Below, one piece after another: positions 2,298 through 41,875 of a stretch of DNA of 64,000 nt (the stretch's first letter is position 1; every line of letters begins with the position of its first letter). The stretch is from the NCBI GenBank assembly GCA_003155695.1, contig PMDZ01000008.1, forward strand, positions 39,362 through 103,361. Reading direction: 5' to 3'. The notes under the pieces were generated by a model. It worked only from the letters and a program-made list of their open reading frames with translations. It was not told the origin of the DNA and did no database searches. Origin of the DNA: Candidatus Nomurabacteria bacterium (lineage in GTDB: Bacteria; Patescibacteriota; Minisyncoccia; Phycocordibacterales; UBA9973). Both the position numbers and the translations under genes were made by a program.

Positions 2298-3104
2298 TTA
2301 TTTTATTTCTCCTTTAAATACAAAAGTTGCCGGACCACGGAGAATAATTTCTCCTTCGGGATTTTCCGATAAGAATAATTTTCCGCCAGGGAATTCCAGG
2401 GTAATTTCTTTCAGATTTTTGTTTTTCTTTTTCAGGATTGCATAGACAGCGCAAGCGCCGGTGCCACAAGCAAGAGTAAGGCCACAACCACGCTCCCAGA
2501 CTTTCACTTTGCAATAATCATCTTTGACTTTTTCAACGAACTCAACGTTTATTTTATTTGGAAAGTGATAATCTTTTTCTACCTCTGGCCCAACCGAAGG
2601 TACATCATAATCATCCAAGCTATCAACCATAACTACGGCATGCGGATTACCCATAGAGACACATTCAAAAGTCAAACCTTCTATACTAAGTTCTCCGCTC
2701 GGAAAGTCAGGGTGAGTAAAGACCGGAGCTCCCATATTAACGCTATAGGTGTCATCTTTGTTTATTTTTACATTTTTTATTCCGGCCCTAGTATCGATAT
2801 TTAATTCTTTCGGATGAGATTCCTGTCTGCTGGTAGGCGATGTTGTTTGCTCAAGGTAGAATTTAGCCGTGCAACGTACACCATTTCCACACATTTCAGC
2901 ATCGGTTCCATCGGAATTATAATAATTCATAAAACAATCTCCTTTTTTTGAAGACTCAAGTAATATAATTCCATCAGCACCGATGCCAAAATGCCTATCG
3001 CAAATGGATTTTATATACTCTCCCTTGAGTTTTATATCTCCCTTTAGGTTATTTATCATTATAAAGTCATTCCCATCGCCTTCATATTTTTCGAATTTAA
3101 TCAT
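2298..3104 (-). CDS. dapF: diaminopimelate epimerase
   Basis: 268 aa starting MIKFEKYEGDGNDFIMINN, with two conserved Cys regions (CGNG.. / ACGTGACA). It converges on gap. Confidence 0.85.
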   Translation of the reverse strand: MIKFEKYEGDGNDFIMINNLKGDIKLKGEYIKSICDRHFGIGADGIILLESSKKGDCFMNYYNSDGTDAEMCGNGVRCTAKFYLEQTTSPTSRQESHPKELNIDTRAGIKNVKINKDDTYSVNMGAPVFTHPDFPSGELSIEGLTFECVSMGNPHAVVMVDSLDDYDVPSVGPEVEKDYHFPNKINVEFVEKVKDDYCKVKVWERGCGLTLACGTGACAVYAILKKKNKNLKEITLEFPGGKLFLSENPEGEIILRGPATFVFKGEIK

Positions 3105-22796: not shown

Positions 22797-24482
22797 ATGA
22801 AGAAATATTTTATTTTCTTGATAATCGGTCTTGTGTTTTTAGTAGCAGGATCAAAGCTTGTTTCCGCATGTGAAGATAATACATGCAATAAAACTGATAC
22901 ACGAACTCTCGGTTGTGATACGGGTTATACCGGCTCAATAACAGAGACACGCTACGAGTCAAAAGATCGTTTCGAATGTAAATGGGGTGATTGGAAAGAA
23001 ACTTCAAATACTTGTACAATAATTCCAGTTAAAGTTGATGGAGGCTGGAGTGATTGGAGTGAAAAAGATAACTCATGTGGATATTCTGGAACACAGACTC
23101 GCACATGTACAAATCCAAGTCTTTCAAATGGAGGCGCAGATTGTGTAGGAGATTCTTCTAAAACCTATACAAACGAAAGTTGCTCTACTCCTGTCGCGAC
23201 TATTTCAGCAACAAAGATTGTTTGTCCAACTGAAGACTTACTTCCAAATTGGGGAGCAGGTGGACCAAACATAACTTCTGGAACTGCAAGTGCTTTCTTA
23301 ACAGCAAATCCTACTTGCCATTCAGTCCCTTGGACTTTCGAATGGGCACCAAAGGATACCTTAAATCCTGGAGATCAAGTTGGCGTAGCAGGCGGAGCTT
23401 GGACTTCTTTCACTGGAACTACTACAGTTCCATCAGGAAATACTGTCTGGGTTCGTGAACAATTTGACAATAACTACATTCCATTTACAGGTGTAACAAC
23501 TACTCTAAATGTTTCAGCAGAACTTTACTGTAATATAGACGTTCTAAACTTTGATAACTACGATAGAGTAGATTCAATAGTTAAAGATAACAATTACTAC
23601 TGTATCGGATTCAATGTATTAAAATCAATTCCAGTTGTCTCTTATACTGTCACTGCAAGTGCAGGTGATAATGGAACTATAACTCCAGCTTCACAAGAAG
23701 CAACTTCAGGTACAACCGTCAACTTTACTGTCACTCCAAATTCTGGATATACAGCAACAGTTGGTGGTACTTGCACAGCAGGAACACTTGTCGGAACAAC
23801 TTACACAACTGGAAATATCACAGCTGATTGTACGGTAGAAGCAACGTTTACCAAAATCCCAGCTAATTCTTTCATCCTTACGGTTGAAACACTGGGAACT
23901 GGTACTGGAGTATTTACAGGCGCCGGAACTTATACTTCCGGAACCGTAGTTACTTTAACTGCAACTCCTTCAGATAATTCAACGTTTGATGGTTGGAGTG
24001 AAAATTGTCCAGGAGGTATTGTAACCTTAACAAGTAATATAACTTGTACAGCTACATTTACTTTGAAGACAGTTACTCATCATAGCAGTGGGCATGTTAT
24101 ATCCAGTGGTTCAATTCCAACGACTGGTCAAGTTCTCGGCGCAGAAACCACTTGTGGAATTTATATCGATAAATACATGAGAATGGGACTTAAGGGTAAT
24201 GACCCGATAGCTGTGAAAAAAGTTCAGATATTCTTGAATAGTTACATGGATTCAGGACTTCTCGTTGATGGAGTATTCGGTCCTAAAACCGATACTGCAG
24301 TTAGAGCTTTCCAAACTAAACAGTTTGACAAAGTGCTAGCTCCTTGGGAACTTACTGGCTCAACTGGCATATTTTATTTGACTACTCAAACAGAAGTCAA
24401 TAATATAATGTGTCCATCGTTGAACTTACCGATTCCAGCGTTAATTCCGATAAATCAGAACCCCGCATTCCCTCAATATTAA
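22797..24482 (+). CDS. secreted multidomain surface protein: signal peptide, TSP1-like repeat, two InlB-B-repeat-like domains, C-terminal PG-binding module
   Basis: The TSP1-like block is GGWSDWSEKDNSCGYSGTQTRTCTNPSLSNGGADC. Two ..GY.ATVGG.C..G / ..STFDGWSENCPGG blocks fit the bacterial Ig-like B-repeat pattern. The C-terminus (DGVFGPKTDTAVRAFQ..) fits PG_binding_1. It is followed by the family-specific tail TGIFYLTTQTEVNNIMCP. Confidence 0.6.
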   Translation: MKKYFIFLIIGLVFLVAGSKLVSACEDNTCNKTDTRTLGCDTGYTGSITETRYESKDRFECKWGDWKETSNTCTIIPVKVDGGWSDWSEKDNSCGYSGTQTRTCTNPSLSNGGADCVGDSSKTYTNESCSTPVATISATKIVCPTEDLLPNWGAGGPNITSGTASAFLTANPTCHSVPWTFEWAPKDTLNPGDQVGVAGGAWTSFTGTTTVPSGNTVWVREQFDNNYIPFTGVTTTLNVSAELYCNIDVLNFDNYDRVDSIVKDNNYYCIGFNVLKSIPVVSYTVTASAGDNGTITPASQEATSGTTVNFTVTPNSGYTATVGGTCTAGTLVGTTYTTGNITADCTVEATFTKIPANSFILTVETLGTGTGVFTGAGTYTSGTVVTLTATPSDNSTFDGWSENCPGGIVTLTSNITCTATFTLKTVTHHSSGHVISSGSIPTTGQVLGAETTCGIYIDKYMRMGLKGNDPIAVKKVQIFLNSYMDSGLLVDGVFGPKTDTAVRAFQTKQFDKVLAPWELTGSTGIFYLTTQTEVNNIMCPSLNLPIPALIPINQNPAFPQY

Positions 24483-24500
24483 TTTGAGTGTAATGATAAA

Positions 24501-24532
24501 AACAATCCCACGAAAGTGGGGTTGTTTTTATT
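24501..24532 (+). terminator. terminator
   Basis: CAATCCCAC-GAAA-GTGGGGTTG followed by a T-run. Confidence 0.6.
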
Positions 24533-24623
24533 TGGGCTTGCTAAATTACACAAGGGTAGTATAGTGCTATCCAGAAGTCTATTTGAAAATTCTTATATTT
24601 TTACTTTATTAATATTCAAAACC

Positions 24624-24773
24624 ATGGAAACGTTTAAAAAAATTTTACGTGGTTTAGGTTGGGCTATTTTGATTCTTGGTACTGTGGCTGTGTTTGTATT
24701 TTGTTTTAGCCAAAAAAGAAACCCGGGACAAACTCAGCTGACTAACAAGCCTGACACTACTATCACTAAGTAA
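24624..24773 (+). CDS. possible small membrane protein (49 aa)
   Basis: METFKKILRGLGWAILILGTVAVFVFCF.. contains one TM helix. A strong terminator at 24801-24843 follows. Confidence 0.2.
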   Translation: METFKKILRGLGWAILILGTVAVFVFCFSQKRNPGQTQLTNKPDTTITK

Positions 24774-24911
24774 AGGAAACCTTTACTGAGACAATCATTT
24801 AACCCCTCTAATCTAAAATAAGATTATAAGAGGGGTTTTTTTATATTAAAAACTCGAAAAAATAAGCATATTGGGGGACTTGACATTATCCACATGTGTT
24901 AACCTTTCCCC

Positions 24912-24940
24912 TTGACTTACCATAATAACAGATGTAATAT
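24912..24940 (+). promoter_or_regulatory. sigma70-like promoter preceded by a C-run (CCCCTTGACT-17-TAATAT)
   Basis: Lies upstream of the 25084 gene. A second TTGACA (GGGGGACTTGACA) sits ~35 nt further upstream. Confidence 0.4.
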
Positions 24941-25083
24941 GACAACCAAATTGGGCGAGAATTTAAACAAGGAAAAGTAAGGGTTTTGTCGATTATCCAT
25001 ACTGATTCTTTTAGAAATTACAAATTATTATTAATTATTAAGGGTTAAACGCTATAATATAATGTTTAACAAAAAAGTTTTTT

Positions 25084-26751
25084 ATGAAAAAAAATAAATT
25101 AATGTCGAAAGTTTCGTCTTTTGTTTCAATGCTTACAATGGTTTTATCGGTTCTAGGTTTTAACGCTTTGACAGCTCAAGCAGCTGTAGCTACAGCACCA
25201 AATCCAACCTTAGGTCAATCTTGCGGAATAAAAGTCGTTTTAATTTTGGATAGCTCAGACAGTATGAGTGACGCCGATATTACAACAGTTAAAAATGATG
25301 CGAATGCATTGGTTGGTTCATTGATGCCTGCAAATCCTATAGGTGTTATTGACTTTGATACACAAGTTGTAAATTCTTTACCTCCTGCAACTGATATCAC
25401 AACCGTAACAAATGCTATCAATTCGATAGGACATACAAATGCTACCGAATCTACAAACTGGGATGCAGCTTTAAATAAAGCTTCCACAATGGTAGGAAGT
25501 GGTGATTTGGTTGTAATTATAACCGATGGTAACCCAACTACTCACGATGGCTCTGGAAATGATATTGATAATGCCGTAACTAGAGCAAATACAATCAAAA
25601 ACATGGGAGCTAGGGTTTTAGCTATTGGAATTAATAGTTCAGGGACTCAAGGTGGTCTTAATCTAGGCAACCTTGAATTAATCTCCGGAACTCAAGTTGC
25701 TAATGGAACATTTACAAATATAAACACAGCTGATGTTTATCTTGGAGATATTTCAACACTTGGTTCCGTATTGGCAAATTTAACTACAGCTTTATGTGGT
25801 GGTCAGCTTACCGTAAGTAAACAGCTATATATGGGAGAAGGAGTGGCTACTATTCCTGGCGGTGCTGGTTGGCAATTTGTTGTCAATGGGAATACTTATC
25901 CAACAGATAATAACAGTAGTATTTCGGTTCCATTTAACAAAGATACAAATGGTATTACAGTTTCCGAAGTAACTCAGACAAATTTTCCGTTTAGATCAGT
26001 TTCTTGTGCTAATGGCACACAAACTGGTGACCAACCAGAAGTCACAGGCATTTCGATCACCAAGAAAACAACAGTTAACTGTACTTTCGTAAATACCCAA
26101 CCCGATATGTGTCCGGGTGATTTGGATCCGGGAGTACAAACAAGTTCTGCTAACTGTACAGTTCCTCCAACATTATGTACAGATCCTACAGCAAATAATG
26201 TAGGATATCCGATACCTTGTACGTTCACAAAGTGTGCATACAATCCGGACATACTAGCAAGTAGTTCAGCTTGTGTTGCTCCAACTTCTAAATTATGCAC
26301 AGATAAAAAAGCAAATAACATGGGTAGTTCATTGCCATGTACTTATAACAGGGGTAGTGGCAGTCATGTATCCAGTGGTTCAATTCTAAAACCTGGTCAA
26401 GTTCTCGGCGCCGTAACTTCTTGTGGAATTTATGTAGATAAATTCTTGAAGAAAGGTTTGAAGGGGAATGACCCGGCTGCTGTCGGGAAAATTCAATCTT
26501 TCTTGAATGATTACACGAGTTCAGGATTGAATGTTGATGGCAAATTTGGCCCTATGACCGATGCTGCTCTCAAGGCTTTCCAGCTTGCTCATGCCGATAA
26601 GATTTTGACTCCATGGGGACTTACAAAGCCAACCGGCATATTCTATTTAACCACTCAAACAGCGGTTAACAATATAATGTGTCCAACACTTGATTTGCCT
26701 ATCCCAGTACTCACTCCGATGGCTCAAAACCCTTTGTTTCCTAAGTTCTAA
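25084..26751 (+). CDS. secreted VWA-domain protein with Cys-rich linker and C-terminal PG-binding module
   Basis: Signal peptide. The MIDAS motif DSSDSMS is followed by a ..ITDGNPT.. VWA pattern. The C-terminal 130 aa are paralogous to the ends of the 22797 and 50366 proteins. Confidence 0.65.
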   Translation: MKKNKLMSKVSSFVSMLTMVLSVLGFNALTAQAAVATAPNPTLGQSCGIKVVLILDSSDSMSDADITTVKNDANALVGSLMPANPIGVIDFDTQVVNSLPPATDITTVTNAINSIGHTNATESTNWDAALNKASTMVGSGDLVVIITDGNPTTHDGSGNDIDNAVTRANTIKNMGARVLAIGINSSGTQGGLNLGNLELISGTQVANGTFTNINTADVYLGDISTLGSVLANLTTALCGGQLTVSKQLYMGEGVATIPGGAGWQFVVNGNTYPTDNNSSISVPFNKDTNGITVSEVTQTNFPFRSVSCANGTQTGDQPEVTGISITKKTTVNCTFVNTQPDMCPGDLDPGVQTSSANCTVPPTLCTDPTANNVGYPIPCTFTKCAYNPDILASSSACVAPTSKLCTDKKANNMGSSLPCTYNRGSGSHVSSGSILKPGQVLGAVTSCGIYVDKFLKKGLKGNDPAAVGKIQSFLNDYTSSGLNVDGKFGPMTDAALKAFQLAHADKILTPWGLTKPTGIFYLTTQTAVNNIMCPTLDLPIPVLTPMAQNPLFPKF

Positions 26752-26830: not shown

Positions 26831-27925
26831 ATGAAAAGTGTAGTAAAAATATTCAAGCATATATTTATTCCTCACATTCACAATAACTACAAGCCACACT
26901 TCTTCCGCGAGGTATCCGTGACTGCTATTTTAATTGTTGTTATTGTTTTATTCTCCGTTTCTTTCTGTTCAAAATTATATATTACGAATAAAAATATGAC
27001 GGCCGAAGTTCTGCCGGCAGTTCTTGTTGACCTCGCCAATAAAGATCGTTCCGCCAGTGGTGAACCGGCGCTCACGCGAAATACTCTTCTTGACACTGCC
27101 GCACAATTGAAAGCACAAGATATGGCAAACTCACAATATTTTGCACATACCAGTCCAGCAGGAATTACTCCGTGGCATTGGTTTAATCAAGTTGGATATT
27201 ATTTCACCTACGCTGGGGAAAACTTGGCTATTGATTTTAATGAATCTATGGATGTGGAAAATGCCTGGCTTAACTCCCCAAAACATCGAGAGAATATTAT
27301 GAGTAATAATTTTACCGAAATCGGTATCGCCACTGCGGAGGGCTATTATAATGGTTCACCGACTACTTACGTCGTTCAAATGTTTGGCACTCCGGCTTTT
27401 ATTCCAAAGGCTGAAGCTGCTACGCCAACAATTAGAGCGACATCTGCCCCAGTCGTCACCCCGAAACCTAAAACAGTTGCAAAGAAACCCGTTCCAACTA
27501 CGACAGAAGTAGTCACCAACCAAGAGGTTAAAGGGGAGTCGGTAGTAGCCACTACTCCGGTTACAAATGAAAAACCAGTGGTAGAAGAACAGCAACTGCA
27601 AACCGTTACCGAAACACCCAATTTTATTTTTGTAAAAAATAATGCTCTTAATGACGAAGTTACTTTACAGGTACCAACAACAGTGGCTACAAGCCCAAAA
27701 TATTCTACTTGGCTAGAACGTTTTGTTTTCTTGATTCCTAATTATACCGACCATATATATAAAATATTTGTTTGGGTAGTTATTATTGCGCTTATGCTAA
27801 TGACTATCGTTGAAATAAGACGCCAACAACCGAAAAATATTACTTACGGAATTCTTTTGATTGTCATAATCTTCTGCTTCATTTATATAAACCAATCAAT
27901 ATTTATAACCAGTCTTCTGGTATAA
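26831..27925 (+). CDS. CAP (SCP/PR1-like, YkwD-like) domain membrane protein with Pro/Thr/Val-rich linker and C-terminal TM helices
   Basis: FAHTSPAG..W..N..Y...GENLA...W..SP.HRENIM...FTEIGIA shows the CAP domain signature. The N-terminal TM helix and hydrophobic C-terminus were read by hand. Confidence 0.55.
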   Translation: MKSVVKIFKHIFIPHIHNNYKPHFFREVSVTAILIVVIVLFSVSFCSKLYITNKNMTAEVLPAVLVDLANKDRSASGEPALTRNTLLDTAAQLKAQDMANSQYFAHTSPAGITPWHWFNQVGYYFTYAGENLAIDFNESMDVENAWLNSPKHRENIMSNNFTEIGIATAEGYYNGSPTTYVVQMFGTPAFIPKAEAATPTIRATSAPVVTPKPKTVAKKPVPTTTEVVTNQEVKGESVVATTPVTNEKPVVEEQQLQTVTETPNFIFVKNNALNDEVTLQVPTTVATSPKYSTWLERFVFLIPNYTDHIYKIFVWVVIIALMLMTIVEIRRQQPKNITYGILLIVIIFCFIYINQSIFITSLLV

Positions 27926-31305: not shown

Positions 31306-32070
31306 ATGAAAAAAATATTTAAAAGTTCAATAGTCTGGAAAGCAATGATAGCTATTGTTCTTGCATTCGGTCTCATCGGACCGCTCACCATATTTGCCGC
31401 CGGTCCGCCGGCAGTCGGTCTGGGAACAGCCGGCAACTTTGTCATTCTCTCGAAAGCGGGAATCTCAACTACCGGGGCCACCAGAATTACCGGAAATATC
31501 GGGGTCAGTCCGATAGCTTCGACAGCCATAACGGGATTCGGGCTGATAAAAGACAGGTCAGGCACATTTTCAAGGTCAGTTCGTGTAATCGGGAAGGTAT
31601 ATGCTGCAAATTATACAGCGCCAACTCCCAGCATACTGACCACAGCAGTAAATAATATGCAAACCGCATATACCGATGCTGCCGGAAGAGCACCGACCTC
31701 GGCTGCAACCACGAACTTGGGAGCAGGAAGTATTGGAGGATTAACACTTAAACCTGGTGTTTATAAATGGACAACAGGTGTGACCATACCGACTGATGTA
31801 ACCCTTTCGGGCAGTTCCAGAGATACTTGGATATTCCAAATAGCCGGAACACTAAATATCAGTTCTGGTAAGCACATAATTCTAAAGGGTGGGGCACTAG
31901 CCAAAAATATTTTCTGGCAAGTTGCCGGAGCAACAACGCTCGGAACTTATTCCACCTTCAACGGAACTATCTTGGATAAAACAAATATTGCAATCCAAAC
32001 AGGCGCAGTATTGAATGGTAAAGCCTTAGCACAGACCGCTGTAACATTACAGGCAAATGCTATTAAATAA
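31306..32070 (+). CDS. secreted DUF3494 (ice-binding-like beta-helix) family protein
   Basis: LGTAGNFVILSKAGISTTGATRITGNIGVSP..ITGF, ..LTLKPGVYKW.., and NIFWQVAGATTLGTYSTFNGTIL match the IBP/DUF3494 family consensus along the full length. Confidence 0.7.
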   Translation: MKKIFKSSIVWKAMIAIVLAFGLIGPLTIFAAGPPAVGLGTAGNFVILSKAGISTTGATRITGNIGVSPIASTAITGFGLIKDRSGTFSRSVRVIGKVYAANYTAPTPSILTTAVNNMQTAYTDAAGRAPTSAATTNLGAGSIGGLTLKPGVYKWTTGVTIPTDVTLSGSSRDTWIFQIAGTLNISSGKHIILKGGALAKNIFWQVAGATTLGTYSTFNGTILDKTNIAIQTGAVLNGKALAQTAVTLQANAIK

Positions 32071-32877: not shown

Positions 32878-35800
32878 CTAATTTGCCGTTGGCACCTCAT
32901 GCCAGGAATTCGGGTCAAAATTGAGGTCAGGTGGCGGAGGTGGCGGAGGAATATCGTCGTTGTTTAAAATGCAAACACGTGTTTCTCCTGCTACAATATT
33001 GCCCAGCGAACCAGAAGATGAACAAGTTGCCCCAGGGGTAAATATATAACCGCTCATGCTGTTTTCAGTGACATTATATGCTCCTGGGTCTACGGTAACA
33101 GAAGTACCTGCGCTACTTCCGGCAAATGAAGTTTGCGACGGACTATCTCCGGTTACTTTTACGGTGAAATTTGATTCTGTTTTACTGCCTCCATTATTGT
33201 TATTGACTTTCGTCATTATCATGAGTGTCCCTTTTGTAGGTGGGTCAGGTGGTGTGACAATTTGATTCGAAGGACAAACTCTTTTACCAATATCGGTAAA
33301 AATACCAGCCATATCTGCCGAGGTAGGTGAGATATAGAAATTGTCTCCGTCGGTATTTTCCGTTGCAGTGTCAATAGTTGTTGTAGAATAATAAACTCTG
33401 GCTTGTAACCAATCCAAATTAGTGACAGCATTGCTGTTACATCCAATACCCGGATCAATATCTTGCACACGAACGCGGAAGTTGCTGTTGGAAAAATCTC
33501 CTGGGGCCCAAGTTCGATACCAATTATCAGTCGAACCACCGAAACTAGGTAATTGAGTAAGTGTACTAGTTAAAGTTTGAGTTTTCTGTGGGCTTACCCA
33601 ATGACTACCGCCATCGTAAGATAAGTCCACGCCTAACTGGCAGGTAGTGCTCAGTGTTGTCGGAGTACTGTAACTTACCGTCAAATACATTTGCGTCACT
33701 CTCGGAACAGATGTGCCGTTGCTGGTTTTTTGGACGCCAAACTTGGTCGTCCAGTTGTTGACTTCGGAAACAGTCCAAGCCGAACCAGTCAAAGGATTGA
33801 TAGTCATAGGGCCGTTGTTGTATTGATAGGTAGCGTAACTGGTAGATAAACTATGGCCATTGTCATTGGTCTGATTGCTGCCATTTTCCGTTATTAACTG
33901 CATGGTGGCACTGCTGCCGTTATAACTTTTGGCTACGACGTTCAAAGTCACGGAGTTGACAGTGGCATTAGATGGAACGCCCGCTCCGGCAAAAGCAAAA
34001 GTTTGTTTGTCGGCTTCATCTATGTAGGTAGTATCTCCGTCATTGCCGTTGACCGCATTAACTGCACTGCCGGTATTGGCTAGCCAGTAATTGTATGAGC
34101 CGGGGGCAGTGGGAGTGAGGTTGGAAGGGACTCCAGGAATTGCATAAAAAACATTAACCGGTATCCAATCAAGGGAAATAGTGCGAGAGCTGGATGATGA
34201 ATTAGCAGTAATCCTAACTCTGAAATTAGTGCTGCTTATATCAGAGATTGACCAGGTATGTCCCCAGTTATCAGTAGAACCACCAAGTGTTTTATTATTG
34301 GTATCGTTGGTACTTTCTGTCGACTCATTTTTTTTCGAAGTCCAAGTTGTACCACCATTCCATGAAAGTTCTACATCCACACTATTTGTCCCAGATGTAC
34401 TATCAAGCCACCAATCGGGTCGCACCTGGATTCCTGTTATAGACGCACCTGCAGGAAGCGATGGCATAGTGTATGTAAAACGATTACGATAATTATTTTT
34501 CGCAGTCGCAGCAGAAGAACCACCATCTGAATAAGCATTAGTTGGATTATTAAAACCAGTACCGTCTGCTGATTGTCCAGAAGGCGAAATATAACCAGTG
34601 CTGCCTGATGTGCTATAACTCACAACCAACCACATTTGCGTCACTCGAGGAATCGAAGCGCCATTGTTGGTCTTTTGAACACCAAATTTAGTCGTCCAAT
34701 TGTTGACTTCCGAAACAGTCCATGCCGAACCGGTTATAGGATTTGTGTTCATTGTCCAGCTATAGGGACTGTAGCTTGCAGTCAAACTATGACCGCTATC
34801 ATTAACCGGTGTGCCACCGTTTTCCGCAATTAATCTCATGGTGGCAGTGGTTCCATTAAAACTTTCTGCCACCGCATTAAGAGTCACAGAGTTGATAGTA
34901 ACACCAGCAGGTACGTTTGCTCCCTGAAAAGCAAAAGTTTGATTGTCTGCTTCATCTATATAGGTAGTATCATTATCACTGCTGCTGATTGCATTAACTG
35001 CACTACCGGTATTGGCTGACCAATAATTGTAAGAGCCGAGGGCAGCCGGGGCGAGATTGGGAGTGTTTGTAACAAGAGGACTATCGGTCACCGAAGCCAC
35101 TGCTTTAGCTTCTATTCCATTTATAATAGACCCGGAAGGAATTGTCGGGATATTAAAATTATAATATCTTTGCATGTGGTTTCCCGTATCTGTAGCTGAA
35201 CTACCGCCACTTCCGTAGGCACTTGTCGGAGAAGACCAACCGGTACCACTATCAACACTATTACTTGAGGGTGATAAAAATCCAGTATCATTAGGAGTTG
35301 TAATATAATTTACAGCGGAATTGGTTGCAAGCGACGCAAGAAAAGTCAGCCCGGAAGTATCACCAAAATGAATGGTGTAGATTTGCGTCGGAATGTTATC
35401 CGGTGCCTTGCCCGCACCAGTAGCAGATTTTGCGGCAGTCGCAGCGCTAGTAGCGGCATCAAGAGCGGTTTGATTTACAGCATAACCATCAGCTAATTTT
35501 CCTCCCGGTTCATTTGCTCCTCCATCCGAAACCAGAATCAATACCTTAGCTTTTCCGGCTATATGGTATGAGGTATTATTTAACTCCGCGTCGGCTTTCG
35601 AAATTACTGCACTGAGATTTGTAAATGCGTACTGTATGGGTATACCCAAAAAGAAAGTAGTGACATTTTGTAAAGCATTTCCAATAGTTGTCGGTAAATT
35701 ATTGTAGTTGCTACTCAAATGGGAAACAATTTCCGCACTCGTATTATTGGCATCTGACTGCGTTAACCATAGCTTGGCCACATCGGCAAAATGTCCAACA

Positions 35801-36906
35801 CTGATTTGTGGATGAGGAGTAAGAACACTGTAAAGTGTAACTAGTGAATTTGCAGCTGCTGCTTCATCATTGATCCAATCTGTTCTATACGTGGATTGAT
35901 TCATTGGATCAGTGTAAAACATACTACTGGTGCGGTCCAGCATCATCACAGTATCGGCACAGGTTGGTGCCGGAGGAACCAGATCATCAAAATTTATGAT
36001 ACAAGTTTTATTTTGCCCGAGAGTCATGGTAATATTTCCACTGGAATTACAGTCATAACCCCATGATGATGCACCGTAACCTGAAAGAGTTGTCGCCGAA
36101 ACCGTGTGGCCTCCGGCAGTGACAGTTTTTGGTTGGCCGAGTGTTACTGAAACTCCGTCAATAAAAAGAGGAAAATCGCTTGGAAGTTTATTCCCGCTAT
36201 CATTATTTGTTACATTGGCTAAGACGGTAAGAGTCGTAGTTATATCATCATAAGTAATCGTGCAAAATTTAATTTCGCCGGCAATAACATTCCCCGAACA
36301 ATTACTGCCGATATTCATTGAGTAATTCGAGAGCGTACTGCCATTAACGCTGAATGGGCCGGGTTGAACCGATACAATCACTCCGGATTCTGAACCATCG
36401 AAAGGATCAACCGGATTGACAGCGCTGACGTTCATCGTAAATTCATTCGCTTGTTTTGTTCCACTACTATCATTTATCACATGTGTCGTCACAAAAAGAG
36501 TACCGGTTGTTGGCGCTGTCGGTATAGAAGTTAAATGAAGGTCATGTATCGCCATTGCCATATCAAGATTGGCATAGGAATTTCGAACGACTGCTTGTGT
36601 TTTAACAGTCACAAGTCCTGGAGGGAAATTGACCAGAATCGGGAATATATGACATGAACCTTCATCTTTTGTTATTGTTACATCACCAACATAAGTCGGG
36701 TCAGTGAGCAGGGTAGCCAGTGCTTGTTCGGCGCACCCTTCAGCCAAGTCATTTGCTTGTTCTTTGGCTTCGGTTCCAAGGACATTAAAACGTGAGGACC
36801 AACCGGAAGAACTGGCTTTTACCGCCATAACCAAAAGGATTAGCGAAATTATAATGGTTGCCATCAAAGCTATATATCCTCCTTGTTTTTTATTATTGTG
36901 GTTCAT
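32878..36906 (-). CDS. giant (1342 aa) pilus-associated adhesin: PilX-N-like membrane anchor, VWA domain, repeated beta-rich modules, poly-Pro C-terminus
   Basis: The N-terminus MNHNNKKQGGYIALMATIIISLILLVMAVKASSSGWSSRF fits the PilX_N pattern. The VWA MIDAS motif is MLDRTSSMF.. with VSDGGANEPG. Two ~150-aa internal repeats are present (..GSYNYW.ANTGSAVNA.. TGSAWTVSEVNNWTTKFGVQKT..). Ends with PPPPPPP. Confidence 0.65.
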   Translation of the reverse strand: MNHNNKKQGGYIALMATIIISLILLVMAVKASSSGWSSRFNVLGTEAKEQANDLAEGCAEQALATLLTDPTYVGDVTITKDEGSCHIFPILVNFPPGLVTVKTQAVVRNSYANLDMAMAIHDLHLTSIPTAPTTGTLFVTTHVINDSSGTKQANEFTMNVSAVNPVDPFDGSESGVIVSVQPGPFSVNGSTLSNYSMNIGSNCSGNVIAGEIKFCTITYDDITTTLTVLANVTNNDSGNKLPSDFPLFIDGVSVTLGQPKTVTAGGHTVSATTLSGYGASSWGYDCNSSGNITMTLGQNKTCIINFDDLVPPAPTCADTVMMLDRTSSMFYTDPMNQSTYRTDWINDEAAAANSLVTLYSVLTPHPQISVGHFADVAKLWLTQSDANNTSAEIVSHLSSNYNNLPTTIGNALQNVTTFFLGIPIQYAFTNLSAVISKADAELNNTSYHIAGKAKVLILVSDGGANEPGGKLADGYAVNQTALDAATSAATAAKSATGAGKAPDNIPTQIYTIHFGDTSGLTFLASLATNSAVNYITTPNDTGFLSPSSNSVDSGTGWSSPTSAYGSGGSSATDTGNHMQRYYNFNIPTIPSGSIINGIEAKAVASVTDSPLVTNTPNLAPAALGSYNYWSANTGSAVNAISSSDNDTTYIDEADNQTFAFQGANVPAGVTINSVTLNAVAESFNGTTATMRLIAENGGTPVNDSGHSLTASYSPYSWTMNTNPITGSAWTVSEVNNWTTKFGVQKTNNGASIPRVTQMWLVVSYSTSGSTGYISPSGQSADGTGFNNPTNAYSDGGSSAATAKNNYRNRFTYTMPSLPAGASITGIQVRPDWWLDSTSGTNSVDVELSWNGGTTWTSKKNESTESTNDTNNKTLGGSTDNWGHTWSISDISSTNFRVRITANSSSSSRTISLDWIPVNVFYAIPGVPSNLTPTAPGSYNYWLANTGSAVNAVNGNDGDTTYIDEADKQTFAFAGAGVPSNATVNSVTLNVVAKSYNGSSATMQLITENGSNQTNDNGHSLSTSYATYQYNNGPMTINPLTGSAWTVSEVNNWTTKFGVQKTSNGTSVPRVTQMYLTVSYSTPTTLSTTCQLGVDLSYDGGSHWVSPQKTQTLTSTLTQLPSFGGSTDNWYRTWAPGDFSNSNFRVRVQDIDPGIGCNSNAVTNLDWLQARVYYSTTTIDTATENTDGDNFYISPTSADMAGIFTDIGKRVCPSNQIVTPPDPPTKGTLMIMTKVNNNNGGSKTESNFTVKVTGDSPSQTSFAGSSAGTSVTVDPGAYNVTENSMSGYIFTPGATCSSSGSLGNIVAGETRVCILNNDDIPPPPPPPDLNFDPNSWHEVPTAN

Positions 36907-36907
36907 A

Positions 36908-37384
36908 TTATTCTCTTAAATAAGTTCTAAAATTAAATGGCTTATCTCCGATAAGAAAATTTACCGAAACAGATGGGGGCCTACCGTTTGCACTGGCTGT
37001 ATATGAAAATTTAACATTCGAAACTGGATATCTGTCACTATTTAACTGTATCGGTACACCAACGCCACGAGCAATAGTCATAATAGTGCCATTGCCACTT
37101 ATGACAAGGGGACTCTGTGCACCTAAGTCCGTTCTGGTTATGGTAACCGTATCACCACTTGCGGAGACGGTCGCATCGGATGCGCCGGTAAGAGCCCAGT
37201 TGATTTTACGATTAAGGAAAATTCCTTCTTCTTGTATTCCGGCGGCTGCAACATTATGATTACTTCCTTCAACAAGATTATATGTTCCAACTACAGCTCC
37301 GGTCATAAGTAAGCCGAAAAGAGCAATGTATATCATCGTTTCCATCAATGTAAATCCTTGTTGATTTTTTATCTTTTTTATCAT
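36908..37384 (-). CDS. minor pilin / pseudopilin
   Basis: QGFTLMETMIYIALFGLL prepilin N-terminus. 158 aa. Confidence 0.6.
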   Translation of the reverse strand: MIKKIKNQQGFTLMETMIYIALFGLLMTGAVVGTYNLVEGSNHNVAAAGIQEEGIFLNRKINWALTGASDATVSASGDTVTITRTDLGAQSPLVISGNGTIMTIARGVGVPIQLNSDRYPVSNVKFSYTASANGRPPSVSVNFLIGDKPFNFRTYLRE

Positions 37385-38946
37385 GGTGTGTATATTACTC
37401 CCAACTTATCGGTTGTTAAGTCTTGGCTAATGGCATAAATCCAATCTCCATCTATATCAAATCCAAGAGGGGCTAAGTGGGGAAAACTATAACTTGTAAA
37501 ACGACCGACATTCAATGTTCCTGTCCAAGTAGAATAATCGGAATCCCAAACTTGAAATTCTTGTCCACTTTTGCTTGTTTCTATATATGCATATTTACCT
37601 GATACCTCAATATTTGTTATGCTGGCTCCGACTTCACCTTGTTCGGATTCAGGGGTTAAAGAACTTTCCGGGTTAGTAACATCAAATACATAAAGTTCTG
37701 GACCTCCGGTATTTGATTGACGCCCGAAATATAAATTATTACCCAAAAGAGAAAGACTAAGACCATCTTGACTACCAGGAAGGTCAACTGAATTAAGTTC
37801 CGTTATTGTATCTCCGGTCACATCTAAAATGCCGAGTTCTTTTAAGTCGGAATCAGCAGCAAGAAAAACTAATCTATGGGTAACACCGGAAATTTTTTGG
37901 TCGCGGACAATTATATCATTTACCGTACGGTCAAGTTTAAAACCATTTCCTATTTCGGTTGGAATGGTCGGCGTAGAAATATTGAAAATATGAAATTCGT
38001 TTCCCGAAGTATAGCGAGTTGTCATATATAAACGACCTCCATAAACAAACAAATGCCATCCTTGCGGAGATGAACCCAGAGGGTCAACATTTTGGAGGTC
38101 ACGTTGCGCAACAAGTGTTGGAGTACTTGGGTCTGTCACATCAATAACGGCAAGTTGTTTGGTTGTCGCATTTACGGCCACGAAAGCATAAGTTCTTCCG
38201 GTAGCCAAGTCTTCCTCAACGTCAACAGCATTTAATTTTACCGGAACCCCGAGAACTTTTACAATATCTGTCGGTGAACTAACCAGAACAGGATTTTGAC
38301 CTACCGCTTCCGGGATATCATATATGGAAAAATATGGACTTATATTACTTGTTGTATAAATCTTTTTATGAAGCACATCAATACCAGTAAATTGCTTCCC
38401 TGGAGCAAATGGTAATGACCCTATACTTTCCGGTGTATTATTCTCCCAATCGCCACTCGGTTGATTTAAAACACAATCACCCCCGCGGGCAATAATTTCC
38501 GGGGTATTCGTGAGGTAAGTGAAAAGTTTTGTTGTCGTTGTTGGATAACTGGCTACTTGCCATTCTACTTTGGCTTCCACATATTTTGAGCAAGAAGATA
38601 AATCAGTAATATTTTTTTGAACATAATAGCACAATCCGCCGGCTATACATGAAGCGTCAGCTGAGTCGGAAGGATCTTTTGACACAGTCAAAGGCGAAGA
38701 TACCGCTTGATAAAAATCTTGTTTTATAAGAGAACGTAAATCTTCAAGCGTAGTCTTTGCTTTATAAAGCGCTTCGTTGGCAGTTTGCGAGGTTATTCCC
38801 CAATATTGGGCCGAAAAATTCGCATTTACCGCTCCAACAAGAACAATACAAATAAGAGCAAAAGCAATCATCAGTTCAATTGTTGAAAATCCCGATGTTT
38901 GATAATTGTAAATTTTTTTATTTTTACCAACTAATTTTTCCTTCAT
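37381..38946 (-). CDS. large prepilin-like protein with LVIVD-repeat beta-propeller
   Basis: SGFSTIELMIAFAL prepilin signal. Repeated ..LAVIDVTDPS.., ..LYVFDVTNPES.., and ..LGILDVTGD.. segments are typical of LVIVD repeats. Confidence 0.55.
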   Translation of the reverse strand: MKEKLVGKNKKIYNYQTSGFSTIELMIAFALICIVLVGAVNANFSAQYWGITSQTANEALYKAKTTLEDLRSLIKQDFYQAVSSPLTVSKDPSDSADASCIAGGLCYYVQKNITDLSSCSKYVEAKVEWQVASYPTTTTKLFTYLTNTPEIIARGGDCVLNQPSGDWENNTPESIGSLPFAPGKQFTGIDVLHKKIYTTSNISPYFSIYDIPEAVGQNPVLVSSPTDIVKVLGVPVKLNAVDVEEDLATGRTYAFVAVNATTKQLAVIDVTDPSTPTLVAQRDLQNVDPLGSSPQGWHLFVYGGRLYMTTRYTSGNEFHIFNISTPTIPTEIGNGFKLDRTVNDIIVRDQKISGVTHRLVFLAADSDLKELGILDVTGDTITELNSVDLPGSQDGLSLSLLGNNLYFGRQSNTGGPELYVFDVTNPESSLTPESEQGEVGASITNIEVSGKYAYIETSKSGQEFQVWDSDYSTWTGTLNVGRFTSYSFPHLAPLGFDIDGDWIYAISQDLTTDKLGVIYTP

Positions 38947-39385
38947 GATTTATTGATATTACTGCTGTAATATTACGATTTGGGTCTATCATGGTTATAT
39001 CCGTATCCTCAGCATCGCCGCTTAATTGCTCGAAAGTAATTTCCGTCGGTGATGTTGGACTGAATGTCACTTCGTAGGAAGATTTCGTATCTTCATCTTT
39101 TGAGCTATCTCTCTCATCGTAAGAATTACCTTCAAAAATAACATATCCCTCATATCCCGCCGGATTGATAGCGACACCGTGTTGCTCTTGGTCTATATTA
39201 TTAAGAGCATCGGCTCGGGCAGTTTGGAGAGCAAGACCAAGATTATTTACTTCGGAACGGAAAGCATCTCCTCGGAAACTATTTATATCTATAAATAACG
39301 ACATCGTTGCGATTACACCGACAAGCCCGATGACAACCAGCATTTCCATTAACGTGAACCCTTTTTCTAATTCAACTTTTTTCAT
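38924..39385 (-). CDS. minor pilin / pseudopilin
   Basis: KGFTLMEMLVVIGLVGVIA prepilin N-terminus. The start is taken at the MKKVELEKGFTL ATG rather than the extended ORF. Confidence 0.6.
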   Translation of the reverse strand: MKKVELEKGFTLMEMLVVIGLVGVIATMSLFIDINSFRGDAFRSEVNNLGLALQTARADALNNIDQEQHGVAINPAGYEGYVIFEGNSYDERDSSKDEDTKSSYEVTFSPTSPTEITFEQLSGDAEDTDITMIDPNRNITAVISINHEGKISW

Positions 39386-39389
39386 CTTT

Positions 39390-40637
39390 TTATCCGTGTA
39401 AATTTTGAGTAATACTATAAATCGGTGTGATAATTGAAATAGCGATAAAGCCGACAAGGACACCCATGAAAATCATCAGCGCAGGTTCGATAAGATTCGA
39501 AATATTTTTTGTAAATTCTTCCACTTCGCTTTCGTAAAGTTCGGAAAGATAAATGAAAGAATTTGATAAGTTTCCGGAGCGTTCTCCGACTGAAATTATC
39601 TGAGTTAGGACTTCCGGGAAAAGGTTTCTATTTTTTGCAAGATAAACTGATATTCGTTCTCCTCGATTGACAGCTTCGGACATAGCTTCAAATTCTCTTT
39701 TGTATACTAGATTTCCTGATACTCTTGTTGTTATTTCTAGCGTTTCGCCGAAAGTCACACCACTTTTCAAAAGTAATCCAATCGTACGAGTAGTATTTGC
39801 CAAATTGTAATGTTTTATAACCTCTCCGATCATCGGAATTTTCATCAATAATTTATCGAAATAGAAGCGGAATATTTTAACTTTTTTTAATGTAAAAATA
39901 AAAACAAGAATGAAAATTACAATGCCGAGAACTAGTTCAAGTCCGTGATGAATCAAGAAATCACTGAAAGCCATAATTATCCTTGTTGAAAGGGGAAGAG
40001 TCATGTGCAAACTGGAAAAGACCGGTAAAATTTTTGGGAAAAGATAAACCATCAGGAATCCGGTAATTCCAAGAGTAGCAAAGGTGACAACAGCCGGATA
40101 AACAAAAGCACCTTTAACTTTTTTCTGTAAAGCGTTTTTCTTTTTTAATTCTTCGGCAAGATAGGTGAGATTATCGCTTAAAATTCCTGCAGATTCTCCG
40201 AAGGAAATAATATTTATTGAGAAATCACCAAATATTTTGTGAAATTTTCCAAGACTAGTGGACAGATTGTGCCCACTTGAAACATCATTAATAACCGTAT
40301 CCAAAATGGTAATGAGACCTTTCTGCCTGGTTTGTTCCCGAATCATCGTTAGACTTTCAAGTATTGGTATACCTGCTTTCAAGAGGAATGATAACCTTTT
40401 TATGAAAAAAGTCTGTTCTTTCAATGTCATTTTGAAGAAAGAGGAACTCTTAAAATTACTAAACATTTTCGAAAAAGATGAAGTGCTTTTTTTGGGAGAT
40501 TTTATATTTGATAATTCTTTATTTTTTTCAAATCTGTTTGTTGTATTATTGAAAAACAAAGTAGTGGATACTCCTCCTTTTTGAACGGAACTTTTCAAAG
40601 CGGAACTATTATTCTTTATGTATTTTTTTATTTCCAT
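39390..40637 (-). CDS. pilC: type IV pilus inner-membrane platform protein (GspF/PilC family)
   Basis: Two T2SSF-type repeats with 3-4 TM helices. 415 aa. Confidence 0.8.
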   Translation of the reverse strand: MEIKKYIKNNSSALKSSVQKGGVSTTLFFNNTTNRFEKNKELSNIKSPKKSTSSFSKMFSNFKSSSFFKMTLKEQTFFIKRLSFLLKAGIPILESLTMIREQTRQKGLITILDTVINDVSSGHNLSTSLGKFHKIFGDFSINIISFGESAGILSDNLTYLAEELKKKNALQKKVKGAFVYPAVVTFATLGITGFLMVYLFPKILPVFSSLHMTLPLSTRIIMAFSDFLIHHGLELVLGIVIFILVFIFTLKKVKIFRFYFDKLLMKIPMIGEVIKHYNLANTTRTIGLLLKSGVTFGETLEITTRVSGNLVYKREFEAMSEAVNRGERISVYLAKNRNLFPEVLTQIISVGERSGNLSNSFIYLSELYESEVEEFTKNISNLIEPALMIFMGVLVGFIAISIITPIYSITQNLHG

Positions 40638-40651
40638 ATTATTAAATATTA

Positions 40652-41875
40652 TTATTCGTGGATTACACGTAGAATTTCTTCTATTGTAGTGATACCTTCT
40701 TCGACTTTTTTAAAGCCATCTTCGAACATGGTAGTCATGCCCCGACTGACGGCTAAATTTTTAATTTCGCTTGCTGAAGCTTTCCTCAATATCGCTTCTC
40801 GGATAACTTCGTCAGCGACCAAAACTTCATTTATACATACTCGACCCGAGTATCCGGTATTGTTGCATTTGTCACAACCTTTACCTTTAAAATATACTTG
40901 GCCGTCATACATCAACTTTCCAATTAATGTATCTTGTAAACTTTCCTTAAGGGCTGGGGTCATCTTATGTTTTTCTTTACAATGTGAACAGATTTTTCGT
41001 ACCAAGCGTTGGCCAATAGCGATTGAGACTGTTGAAGCAACTAGATATTCCTCGACACCCATATCGAGCAAGCGTGGCAAGGTTGTAGCTGCATCGCTTG
41101 TATGCAGAGTTGAAAGGAGCAAATGCCCAGTAAGTGCTGTATTTACGGCAATATTTGCCGTTTCGGCATCACGAATTTCCCCGACCATAACAATGTTCGG
41201 GTCCTGCCTCAATATTGAACGTAGCCCATTAGCGAAAGTAAGCCCAGAATGGGAATTAACTTGTATTTGCTCAATATCGCCAATTGAATATTCTATCGGG
41301 TCTTCAATCGTAATTATCGAAACATCGGGATGATTCAACATTTTGATAAGAGTATAAAGAGTCGTAGTTTTCCCGGAACCGGTCGGCCCAGTAGCGAGAA
41401 TCATTCCGCTTGATTTTTTCATTGCAGCGATTATTTTTTTTGTATCACTATCACTAAAGCCTAAATTCTCCAAACTGAAATTTTCCGCTTTATCGGAAAG
41501 CAATCGCAAAACGGCATTCTCGCCGTGATATGTCGGAACAATAGAAACACGAAGGTCAATGAATTCATTCGTCACCGGAAAGATATATCGAAAGCGCCCG
41601 TCTTGCGTAGCTTGATGTTCATCGGTACGAAGTCTGGAGAGAATTTTTATTCTTGAAATTATTTCTCCATGGATATTTTTGGGGAGGGGATGAGAATCTT
41701 CAAGAACACCATCAATACGAAAACGCAAACGAACAGCTTTCTCTTGTGGGTCTAAGTGAATATCAGACGCATTTATTATAGACGCATGTTTTATAATCTC
41801 ATCAATTAAGTTAATAATTGAAAGATTTACTCCGTGAGCCAATTCTTTTTCTATAATCGCGTTAAATTCGTTCAT
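40652..41875 (-). CDS. pilB: type IV pilus assembly ATPase (GspE/PilB family, short form lacking N-terminal domains)
   Basis: Walker A GPTGSGKTT, Asp box, His box and the C-terminal tetracysteine C..C...C..C. Confidence 0.85.
   Translation of the reverse strand: MNEFNAIIEKELAHGVNLSIINLIDEIIKHASIINASDIHLDPQEKAVRLRFRIDGVLEDSHPLPKNIHGEIISRIKILSRLRTDEHQATQDGRFRYIFPVTNEFIDLRVSIVPTYHGENAVLRLLSDKAENFSLENLGFSDSDTKKIIAAMKKSSGMILATGPTGSGKTTTLYTLIKMLNHPDVSIITIEDPIEYSIGDIEQIQVNSHSGLTFANGLRSILRQDPNIVMVGEIRDAETANIAVNTALTGHLLLSTLHTSDAATTLPRLLDMGVEEYLVASTVSIAIGQRLVRKICSHCKEKHKMTPALKESLQDTLIGKLMYDGQVYFKGKGCDKCNNTGYSGRVCINEVLVADEVIREAILRKASASEIKNLAVSRGMTTMFEDGFKKVEEGITTIEEILRVIHE

Follow-up and report, generated by a model that had tools for sequence, protein, structure and literature searches.

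Three genes in the window, the whole stretch of 64,000 nucleotides that was analysed, encode proteins with wholly different N-terminal passengers and one shared C-terminus of about 130 residues. Its module, a domain of about 105 residues, is a lineage-specific divergent variant of the PG_binding_1 three-helix bundle. It is probable, in our view, that the three proteins (p1, p2 and p3) form a set that a Patescibacteria (Nomurabacteria/Paceibacteria-like) cell exports through Sec and displays on its surface, anchored non-covalently to the wall. Patescibacteria rely on contact with other cells, and how their surface proteins stay on the envelope is almost unknown. The genes and their parts are as follows:

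22797-24482, + strand: p1, a secreted-type protein of 561 aa (ORF, Pfam) with a signal-peptide-like N-terminus, a Cys-rich region holding one thrombospondin type-1 repeat (TSR), an unknown domain (aa ~130-280), two InlB-B-type repeats, linker and module
23028-23192, + strand: TSR of p1, aa 78-132 (TSP_1 Pfam, homology, AF2/Foldseek)
23637-24089, + strand: two divergent InlB B-repeat (Flg_new_2) domains of p1 (Pfam PF18998, 3.3e-14, two stretches)
24090-24479, + strand: linker (HHSSGHVISSGSIPTTGQVLGA) and PG_binding_1-variant module of p1 (alignment, module HMM, BLASTP), with VLGA at 24129-24143, Cys1 at 24153 and helix 3 plus Cys2 at 24363-24416
25084-26751, + strand: p2, a secreted-type protein of 555 aa (ORF, Pfam) with a signal peptide, VWA domain (25231-25695), middle beta-rich region, Cys-loop stalk, linker and module
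26347-26748, + strand: linker and module of p2 (aa 422-555, the modelled sequence), with VLGA at 26398-26412
50366-52753, + strand: p3, a secreted-type protein of 795 aa (Pfam) with a CE4 domain interrupted by a CBM_4_9-like insert, Cys-loop stalk repeats, linker and module
52355-52750, + strand: linker (THHISSGSIPMSTQGSVLGA) and module of p3 (alignment, module HMM)
52803-55133, + strand: paralogue of p3, its passenger 67% identical to that of p3 over about 660 aa (BLASTP)

The ORF coordinates of p1-p3 are exactly those of a first-pass annotation of this DNA, which had proposed a common C-terminus behind completely different passengers. Both parts of the proposal hold: in pairwise BLASTP the proteins are alike only in their last 118-175 residues, with 67% identity over 118 aa for p1/p2 (E 1e-52), 61% over 152 aa for p1/p3 and 66% over 175 aa for p2/p3 (E 3e-68). 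Because their DNA identity is 68-72%, the modules are old paralogues and not a recent duplication; a module HMM matched p1-p3 and the remnant of a fourth gene, p4, and nothing else in the window. The first-pass annotation had itself considered that the common C-terminus might be generic low-complexity sequence without fold conservation. This reading, like those of a coincidental similarity or of a misassembly (for example a collapsed repeat), has practically no probability left. The sole support is the Gly/Ser-rich linker upstream of the module, and all three readings are refuted by E-values from 1e-52 to 1e-68 for copies so diverged in DNA, by a confident globular model, by homologues in the hundreds and by recovery of the same genes from independent assemblies. 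The p1 product is also found on a 161-kb ENA scaffold.

The PG_binding_1-like core that had been described in the module is borne out by Pfam, where PG_binding_1 (PF01471) scores 28.5, 28.5 and 25.4 bits in p1, p2 and p3 against a gathering cutoff of 23, the match spanning only profile positions 3-41 of 57; a PDB sequence search with the module returned PG_binding_1 domains only. The "tail" behind this core, previously judged unrecognisable, is PG_binding_1 helix 3 followed by an extension predicted to be ordered. The AlphaFold model that had been called for (AF2; p2 linker and module, aa 422-555; pLDDT 87.6, pTM 0.74) has helices at aa 464-478, 490-502 and 522-532 and a disordered linker, and forms a PGBD-type three-helix bundle that, as modelled, superposes on solved PGBDs; its structural neighbours are endolysins, SleB/SleC, DD-peptidase and L,D-transpeptidases. 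Identity to solved PG_binding_1 structures is 24-36% in structural alignments, and the helix-1 and helix-2 motifs (…VKKLQ.FLN… and VDG.FG..T..AVK.FQ) are canonical and common to the SleB N-terminal domain (6tci), phage phiKZ gp144/KZ144 (3bkh), the Burkholderia phage AP3 endolysin (5nm7) and the Streptomyces Zn DD-peptidase (1lbu).

Unlike the PG_binding_1 of such wall enzymes, the module has an insert of about 9 residues with an invariant PW between helices 2 and 3, which displaces the second repeat, a conserved Cys pair, a Pro-rich C-terminal extension of about 22 residues that is predicted to be ordered, and a GxVLGA motif in front. Two DG(Pho)2G..T repeats, heading helices 2 and 3, are characteristic of PG_binding_1 and known from the KZ144 literature. 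The first is kept in the module (VDGKFGPMT), and the second, at the start of helix 3 (TGIFYLTTQT.VNNIM), is recognisable but changed (PTGIFYLTT; D→T, G→Y). With PTGIFY.TT in place of this second repeat, the module may differ in ligand specificity from canonical PG_binding_1. One of the two Cys immediately precedes helix 1 and the other immediately follows helix 3; both are present in 224 of 232 instances and would be expected to form a disulfide.

Beyond the window, a profile search found the module in 335 clusters (50% identity) at E≤1e-30. Hundreds of clusters thus carry it on varied passengers, which reinforces the modular repertoire that had been proposed. It ends at most 15 aa from the C-terminus in 115 of 128 representatives, usually follows a Gly/Ser linker and GxVLGA, and is preceded by VLG in 115 of the 128. 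N-termini are signal-peptide-like in about 90/128, judged by eye and by a crude hydrophobicity rule; those of p1-p3, judged in the same way, agree with the earlier reading as secreted proteins and suggest Sec secretion. Among 68 members, 67 have a Pfam PG_binding_1 match, and passengers comprise PKD, Ig-like, cadherin-like, SpaA, InlB-B, DUF642 and CE4 domains and, in one member, a Sortase domain. At 26 genome loci every specific taxon label is Patescibacteria except on one short contig (L014, Gammaproteobacteria), some being labelled just "bacterium"; the source had correctly been taken for an episymbiont-type bacterium. Around these genes the window holds a type IV pilus cluster and further genes for secreted proteins. 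Where p3 has the module, its adjoining paralogue has five Cys repeats of about 33 aa, an apparent natural module swap showing, at the level of sequence, that the C-terminus can be exchanged as a cassette.

Pfam confirmed most of the passenger domains that had been named (VWA, TSP_3, HYR, Ig-like, CE4 and InlB-B), whereas CBM_4_9 stayed below cutoff and TSP_1 was borderline. In p2, VWA_2 (47.6 bits, 3e-12) and VWA (40.9 bits, 3e-10) agree with the reported VWA domain with intact MIDAS, whose metal-site residues (DxSxS…T…D) were found by inspection (DSSDS at aa 56-60 and TDG at aa 147-149, the Thr position not being placed on a structure). Of the CBM-CE4 deacetylase assigned to p3, the CE4 part stands, with Polysacc_deac_1 at 74.8 bits (7e-21) and the motifs TFDDG at aa 208 and HTQTH (H-x-x-x-H) at aa 423 split by the insert, but CBM_4_9 reaches only 21.5 against a cutoff of 25.9; in NCBIfam an HfsH/PdaB-like match lies below cutoff and no equivalog reaches it. 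The InlB-B-like repeats of p1 are matched by Flg_new_2, and its supposedly near-canonical TSR is borderline but supported. The motifs WSDWS, CG.SGTQTRTC and NGGADC are present, resembling the WSxWS, CG.G.QTR.C and NPxPxNGGxxC of TSP_1 (PF00090) in animals, apicomplexans and rarer bacterial copies (Halobacteriovorax sp. JY17). Its identity to the TSRs found in proteins that carry Pfam TSP_1 is 50-59%, and relatives with precomputed PF00090/PF19028 have E 1e-17 to 1e-24. TSP_1 scores 17.8 bits over the full-length protein, short of the cutoff of 21.6, and 23.8 bits for the 55-aa segment alone; the AF2 model has pLDDT 82.5, and 25 of 26 Foldseek matches are TSR proteins, all at E>0.6. C1 and C5 of a TSR are disulfide partners. 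Both are missing from p1 (as in its relative P0239), which keeps four of six canonical Cys, two Trp (in WSDWS, the third missing) and one Arg (in TQTRT) in a single copy, and so departs from the pattern of six Cys, three disulfides and a Trp/Arg ladder. To call the passengers eukaryote-like was an overstatement: bacterial surface proteins commonly contain VWA, TSP_3, HYR and Ig-like domains, and among the close relatives of the TSR are a Halobacteriovorax protein and others that are likely bacterial.

The fourth gene had been described as one protein (42143-44010) with a variant module. It is instead a frameshifted gene, and its PG_binding_1 is canonical:

42143-43867, + strand: p4, a 574-aa ORF with signal peptide (Pfam)
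42752-42892, + strand: TSP type-3 repeats (TSP_3, 3e-10, Pfam)
43193-43423, + strand: HYR (1e-6, Pfam)
43475-43693, + strand: Ig-like/DUF5011, now Bact_surface_Ig-like (1e-21, Pfam)
43700-43798, + strand: linker AHKHSSGSSGGSIP...GGQVLGA, the frame being lost about 14 codons after VLGA
43819-44010, + strand: out-of-frame remainder, a complete canonical PG_binding_1 (…NGNEVMELQKFLNN…VDGIFGPKT…GDGIVGPLTRAVLNK*; module HMM, hhalign)

The TSP3, HYR and DUF5011 assignments of the first-pass annotation stand. The ORF stops at 43867, a 1-nt frameshift separates it from the PG_binding_1 running to 44010, and one extra A at TCAATGGC, about 43829, would restore the frame. Gene callers list the remainder (43846-44010) as a separate 54-aa ORF, and the truncated product is called on at least eight contigs from at least two samples. 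In hhalign the module profile matched the frame-repaired PG_binding_1 of p4 at 98.2%, the alignment beginning at VLGA. Frameshifts or stops decouple passenger and module at or near the linker in three genes (p4, L011 and L007).

In the arrangement that we favour, each protein consists of a putative signal peptide, a variable passenger, a flexible Cys-loop or Gly/Ser-rich linker, GxVLGA and the C-terminal domain, which would hold non-covalently to the peptidoglycan of the producing cell itself, the linker allowing the putatively adhesive N-terminal passenger to extend outward; in p3 the module may instead direct the deacetylase to its polysaccharide substrate. A target in the wall of a host or prey bacterium, with the proteins acting as released or pilus-proximal attack or attachment factors and the PGBD as their adhesive end, seems to us unlikely, although several observations suit it. 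Endolysins and secreted cell-wall hydrolases offer an analogy, PG_binding_1 accompanies wall-modifying enzymes in most characterised proteins and likewise in the structural neighbours, p3 is a CE4 deacetylase, the genome is of episymbiont type, and Kuroda et al. (PMC10936435) suggest that PGBD proteins join in host attachment. Most passengers, however, are adhesin-type arrays of beta-sandwich domains and not enzymes, and a long flexible linker separates them from the module at the very C-terminus, the geometry that self-anchored adhesins have; the Sortase passenger of one member is an enzyme acting on the producer's own surface. Methanogenic archaea are without murein, which also counts against a host wall as target. 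PMC10936435 documents methanogenic archaea as the hosts of Paceibacteria.

Quite unlikely is a role of the module or of GxVLGA as a sorting or processing signal, not or not only as a wall binder, in which a dedicated protease or transpeptidase might cut at VLGA, releasing or covalently linking the passenger, or the PGBD-like domain might be a removable pro-domain or secretion chaperone, by analogy with the same fold in MMP zymogens. Strict conservation had been claimed for HHSSGS..GQVLGA, but HHSSGS occurs in 15 of 163 members, and in the window in the loose form H-x0-2-SSGSI only; the family feature is GxVLGA, which is 85-88% conserved, precedes Cys1 at a constant distance of 3 residues in 112/163 members, is tandemly duplicated now and then, and falls in a segment predicted to be disordered (pLDDT <50, AF2, p2 module). 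The six frames of the window hold exactly four copies, each preceding a PG_binding-type domain, including the canonical one of p4. This conservation is unexplained by a pure anchor model and, with the three decoupled genes, speaks for a signal, as does the fact that one universal C-terminal domain on diverse passengers is also what marks sorting domains like the T9SS CTD. A C-terminal element with a short motif (VLGA, cf. LPXTG) on many surface proteins is likewise a trait of sortase and exosortase substrates. Unlike in LPXTG, PEP-CTERM and GlyGly-CTERM signals, however, the motif is followed by no hydrophobic transmembrane helix or charged, basic tail but by a folded, soluble helical domain of about 110 residues ending …NPLFPKF; no conserved candidate processing enzyme lies beside the genes within the window, and the fixed spacing fits equally an N-terminal cap that the model left unplaced. 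It is very improbable that GxVLGA and the variant PGBD make up a Patescibacteria-specific surface-sorting cassette, in which a dedicated enzyme cleaves or attaches covalently, or a switch between anchored and released states; if they did, the lesions in p4, L011 and L007 would be a population-level on/off switch for anchoring, and the cassette a new cell-surface display system in CPR.

As a putative own-wall anchor, the module would parallel in its usage the LysM, SLH, CWB2 and GW anchors of monoderm bacteria. With these and WxL it has in common that a reusable terminal cassette stands on unrelated passengers behind a flexible spacer, with several paralogues per genome. Its fold, by contrast, is unrelated, none of the five families had a Pfam match in the window proteins scanned, and their ligands (SCWP, LTA, PG glycan) are established by experiment whereas that of the module is inferred. 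From the PG_binding_1 of wall enzymes, which sits on hydrolases, it differs in its mainly adhesin-type passengers and nearly always C-terminal position. What the module defines is a neatly modular family of surface proteins; it adds no new kind of system or mechanism, and its fold is already known. In Paceibacteria, extracellular proteins containing PGBD, Ig-like and PKD domains are highly expressed and have been proposed to act in attachment (Kuroda et al, 2024, mBio; PMC10936435). These resemble our proteins in bacterial class, domain kinds and proposed role, a likeness by description and not by sequence comparison; the PGBD was identified there at InterPro level only, without the variant features or a family-wide C-terminal cassette.

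One recognisable C-terminal cassette marks hundreds of secreted adhesin-like proteins and enzymes. It is a handle for listing candidate surface proteins in any Paceibacteria-type genome, helps to pick targets for localisation and host-range studies, and provides one small domain to test for its ligand. Genes of the family are already auto-annotated as peptidoglycan-binding proteins.

The table-11 ORF listing reproduced exactly the coordinates that the first-pass annotation had assigned to three secreted proteins, here called p1, p2 and p3:

22797-24482, + strand, p1, 561 aa
25084-26751, + strand, p2, 555 aa
50366-52753, + strand, p3, 795 aa

As had been claimed, the three have a common C-terminus and different passengers, the N-terminal regions ahead of the linker: BLASTP similarity is confined to the C-terminus, with no match elsewhere (p1/p2, 67% identity over 118 aa, E 1e-52; p1/p3, 61% over 152 aa; p2/p3, 66% over 175 aa, E 3e-68). 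The additional length of the p2/p3 match comprises two short Cys-bounded loops (CAYN.D.LAS…CVAP), a stalk ahead of the linker. Because DNA identity between the module copies is only 68-72%, they are old paralogous cassettes, neither a recent duplication nor an assembly artefact, and recent gene conversion is ruled out on the same grounds. The products of p1 and of p4, the gene at 42143-44010, are also encoded on independent ENA assemblies, one of them a 161,651-bp scaffold.

The region 42143-44010 had been read as a single ORF carrying a variant of the shared C-terminus, and neither part of that description holds. The upstream frame encodes the passenger and the linker (AHKHSSGSSGGSIP…GGQVLGAEHFNFTLLLKMGS) and stops at 43867; the remainder is read in another frame (…NGNEVMELQKFLNNAGYGILAVDGIFGPKTKAAVIKFQIASGLAGDGIVGPLTRAVLNK*, ending at 44010) and is a complete canonical PG_binding_1 domain, not the variant module. 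The frameshift is of 1 nt and lies 14 codons past VLGA; one extra A in TCAATGGC (~43829) would reunite the two frames. At least eight contigs from at least two samples encode the truncated 574-aa product with the 54-aa PG_binding_1 ORF standing separately behind it, which makes the lesion a feature of the population, not a one-off error. An alternative genetic code was ruled out, since all other genes are clean in table 11 and the downstream sequence lies in a different frame, and no slippery heptamer for programmed -1 frameshifting was seen at the site. The passenger is disconnected from the putative wall-binding module, at the linker or close to it, in three of the ~30 genes examined:

p4, window 43800-44010, 1-nt frameshift
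L011 (a related locus), 2960-3000, frameshift within a G6 run of the Gly linker
L007 (a related locus), 1370-1395, in-frame TAA five codons ahead of GQVLGA

Such lesions may reflect pseudogenes or assembly errors at homopolymers; they may also switch the proteins between an anchored and a released form.

The PG_binding_1-like core proposed for the module was confirmed. The Pfam match covers the first 40% of the module and is above cutoff in p1, p2 and p3, and the PDB matches of a 77-sequence module profile are exclusively PG_binding_1 domains, at profile positions 37-85 only. An AlphaFold2 model built from the 77-sequence alignment (mean pLDDT 87.6, pTM 0.74; >90 across residues 30 to 130) shows three main helices (residues 43-57, 69-81 and 101-111), with a single turn at 83-86 after the second. 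The conserved tail that the first-pass annotation could not recognise is indeed conserved, and can now be placed as the third helix (LTTQTAVNNIM in p2 numbering). In hhalign the module profile and the repaired canonical p4 domain aligned with 98.2% probability from VLGA to just past helix 2. On the basis of the Pfam, PDB-profile, AlphaFold2 and hhalign results, we regard the module as a PG_binding_1 domain with four lineage-specific features:

Feature 1, between helices 2 and 3: insert of ~9 residues (H.DKILTPWG…) with invariant P and W
Feature 2: second DG..G..T repeat altered to PTGIFY.TT
Feature 3: two Cys, one three residues past VLGA and one directly after helix 3
Feature 4: Pro-rich extension of ~22 residues (L.LPIP.L.P…NP.FP), modelled with pLDDT ~92

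Both Cys are present in 224 of 232 instances and may form a disulfide. By sequence threshold and predicted fold, p1-p3 are members of the PG_binding_1 superfamily; NCBIfam holds no curated model specific to the module, and Pfam offers just the partial PG_binding_1 match.

The Pfam scan of p1-p4 bore out most of the proposed passengers, namely the InlB-B-like repeats of p1 (two Flg_new_2 stretches, 3e-14), the VWA domain with its MIDAS motif in p2 (VWA_2, 3e-12; VWA, 3e-10; DSSDS…TDG present) and the TSP type-3, HYR and DUF5011 domains of p4 (TSP_3, 3e-10; HYR, 1e-6; Bact_surface_Ig-like, the former DUF5011, 1e-21). Of the CBM-CE4 deacetylase described for p3, the CE4 part stands (Polysacc_deac_1, 7e-21, matched in two parts with a CBM_4_9-like insert between them), whereas CBM_4_9 stays under the cutoff at 21.5 bits. 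The CE4 catalytic domain of p3 is seemingly split (50957-52165), with TFDDG at aa 208, HTQTH at aa 423 and the sub-threshold CBM_4_9-like domain of ~170 aa between them; the same region of the gene at 52803-55133 is arranged likewise.

The thrombospondin type-1 repeat (TSR) of p1 had been called near-canonical. TSP_1 scores 17.8 bits in the whole protein (cutoff 21.6), whereas a 55-aa segment alone reaches 23.8 bits, above cutoff. At E 1e-17 to 1e-24 the N-terminal region matches proteins for which TSP_1/TSP1_spondin domains are precomputed, including one from Halobacteriovorax that carries the name thrombospondin type-1 domain protein at NCBI, and the segment is 50-59% identical to the repeats of these proteins. 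In Foldseek, 25 of 26 matches to its AlphaFold2 model (pLDDT 82.5) were TSR-containing structures, none statistically significant. Both Cys1 and Cys5 are missing, as they are from the likely bacterial relative P0239; we accept the segment as a TSR, albeit a reduced rather than a near-canonical one. A literature search on TSP1 domains in prokaryotes found nothing beyond a review in which TSP1 is presented as an adhesion domain of animal origin. The part of p1 that separates the TSR from the InlB-B repeats, aa ~130-280 (window 23190-23640), has no Pfam assignment bar a weak AF_1763-like_C match (E 0.015); P0233 is its one clear homologue (48% identity, with 55% of the query aligned).

A word-seeded search recovered 13 clusters with one module and ~100 with the alignment, and an exhaustive profile search of 1.84 billion 50%-identity representatives returned 335 at E≤1e-30 and 4,406 at E≤1e-10, the weaker tail merging into ordinary PG_binding_1 proteins. 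Among the 128 top representatives (300-1,900 aa), the module lies ≤15 residues from the C-terminus in 115, VLG stands immediately ahead of it in 115, and a crude rule finds a signal-peptide-like N-terminus in ~90. Pfam on 68 family members gave PG_binding_1 in 67, PKD-type domains in ~16, InlB-B in 9, Big_9 and DUF642 in 8 each, Ig-like/DUF5011 and SpaA-type in 7 each and cadherin-like in 6; singletons include CE4, Ice-binding and Sortase. A motif search did not locate the Sortase-bearing member. In species-representative genomes, a 15-sequence module alignment found 26 related loci, labelled Nomurabacteria, Paceibacteria, 'Patescibacteria group', Saccharibacteria or only 'bacterium', with one short contig assigned to Gammaproteobacteria; a Ca. 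Nomurabacteria MAG matches best (78%), and 24 of the 26 have a long ORF that ends with the module.

The linkers of the four window genes have two elements in common, H-x(0-2)-SSGSI… and G(Q/S)VLGA. The former had been described as strictly conserved (HHSSGS), a description that fails across the family, where H..SSG occurs in 15 of 163 members and the linker is plainly Gly/Ser-rich (G 19%, S 13%). GxVLGA is the element that is really conserved, each position being ~72-88% conserved; its spacing to the first Cys is exactly three residues in 112 of the 163 members, and it is tandemly duplicated in 14. The region is disordered in the AlphaFold2 model (pLDDT <50), and GxVLGA may cap the domain at its N-terminal side, be cut by a protease or serve for recognition. 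Directly ahead of the linker, many family members (P0006, P0015, P0113, L013, L016, L021 etc.) carry tandem CSDG.DND.D.LID..DPGCH.DGN..N..SY.P.D..E repeats, Asp-rich, Cys-bounded and reminiscent of Ca-binding TSP3 or dockerin loops; the window members carry other Cys-loop stalks.

The first-pass annotation was thus largely right in its factual observations, and its interpretation is supported only in part. The best-supported reading, ahead of both rivals, is that these proteins probably form a Sec-secreted display set, in which the putative wall-binding variant domain would attach each protein, by non-covalent binding, to the peptidoglycan of the producing cell itself, leaving the flexible linker to present the passenger; in p3 the module may instead, or also, bring the CE4 enzyme to a wall polysaccharide. 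Such proteins would work like those with the LysM, SLH, CWB2 and GW anchoring cassettes of monoderm bacteria, yet they fall outside those families. That the module binds host peptidoglycan is in line with the usual occurrence of peptidoglycan-binding domains with wall enzymes and with the suggestion of Kuroda et al. 2024 (PMC10936435) for Paceibacteria proteins with such domains; we consider it unlikely here. A sorting or processing role centred on VLGA is more doubtful still: GxVLGA is followed by no sortase- or exosortase-type signal, neither a hydrophobic helix nor a basic tail.

Many family proteins are already labelled 'peptidoglycan-binding protein' in databases. Extracellular proteins bearing such domains were noted in the same class by Kuroda et al. 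2024, the one pertinent paper on Patescibacteria that was found. Literature searches on PG_binding_1 in the CPR, on thrombospondin in Patescibacteria, and on Patescibacterial surface proteins in connection with wall binding and PKD domains found nothing relevant. Neither the variant itself, with its insert, altered helix 3, Cys pair, Pro tail and VLGA, nor its use as a nearly universal tag at the C-terminus of adhesin-like proteins is described in the literature found. The module is useful for annotating Patescibacterial surface proteomes and will not surprise a specialist.

The remaining content of the window (GC 37%) fits a Patescibacterial genome, and includes:

32878-41875, - strand, type IV pilus-like cluster with a T2SSE ATPase (40652-41875), T2SSF (39390-40637), three N-methyl pilin-like proteins, an LVIVD-repeat protein and a 1,342-aa protein
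52803-55133, + strand, tandem paralogue of p3 with a CBM-interrupted CE4 passenger (67% identity to p3 over 660 aa)

The p3 paralogue ends in five Cys-rich repeats of ~33 aa (VDVCPNVTGVQTTGPCADTLCVAPKTW..TQTCVAP) in place of the module; this combination of the p3 passenger with other repeats shows that the C-terminal part acts as a cassette that can be exchanged. The 1,342-aa protein starts like a pilin, resembles VWA in its middle part, and contains internal duplications of ~240 aa and a SpaA_2 domain. Two more secreted or membrane proteins, at 26831-27925 (+) and 31306-32070 (+), have domains that are often regarded as eukaryote-like or unusual. They are a protein with a CAP/SCP (PR-1-like) domain between hydrophobic segments and an Ice-binding-like protein (PF11999, 1.6e-74), whose domain is also the passenger of one module-bearing family member.
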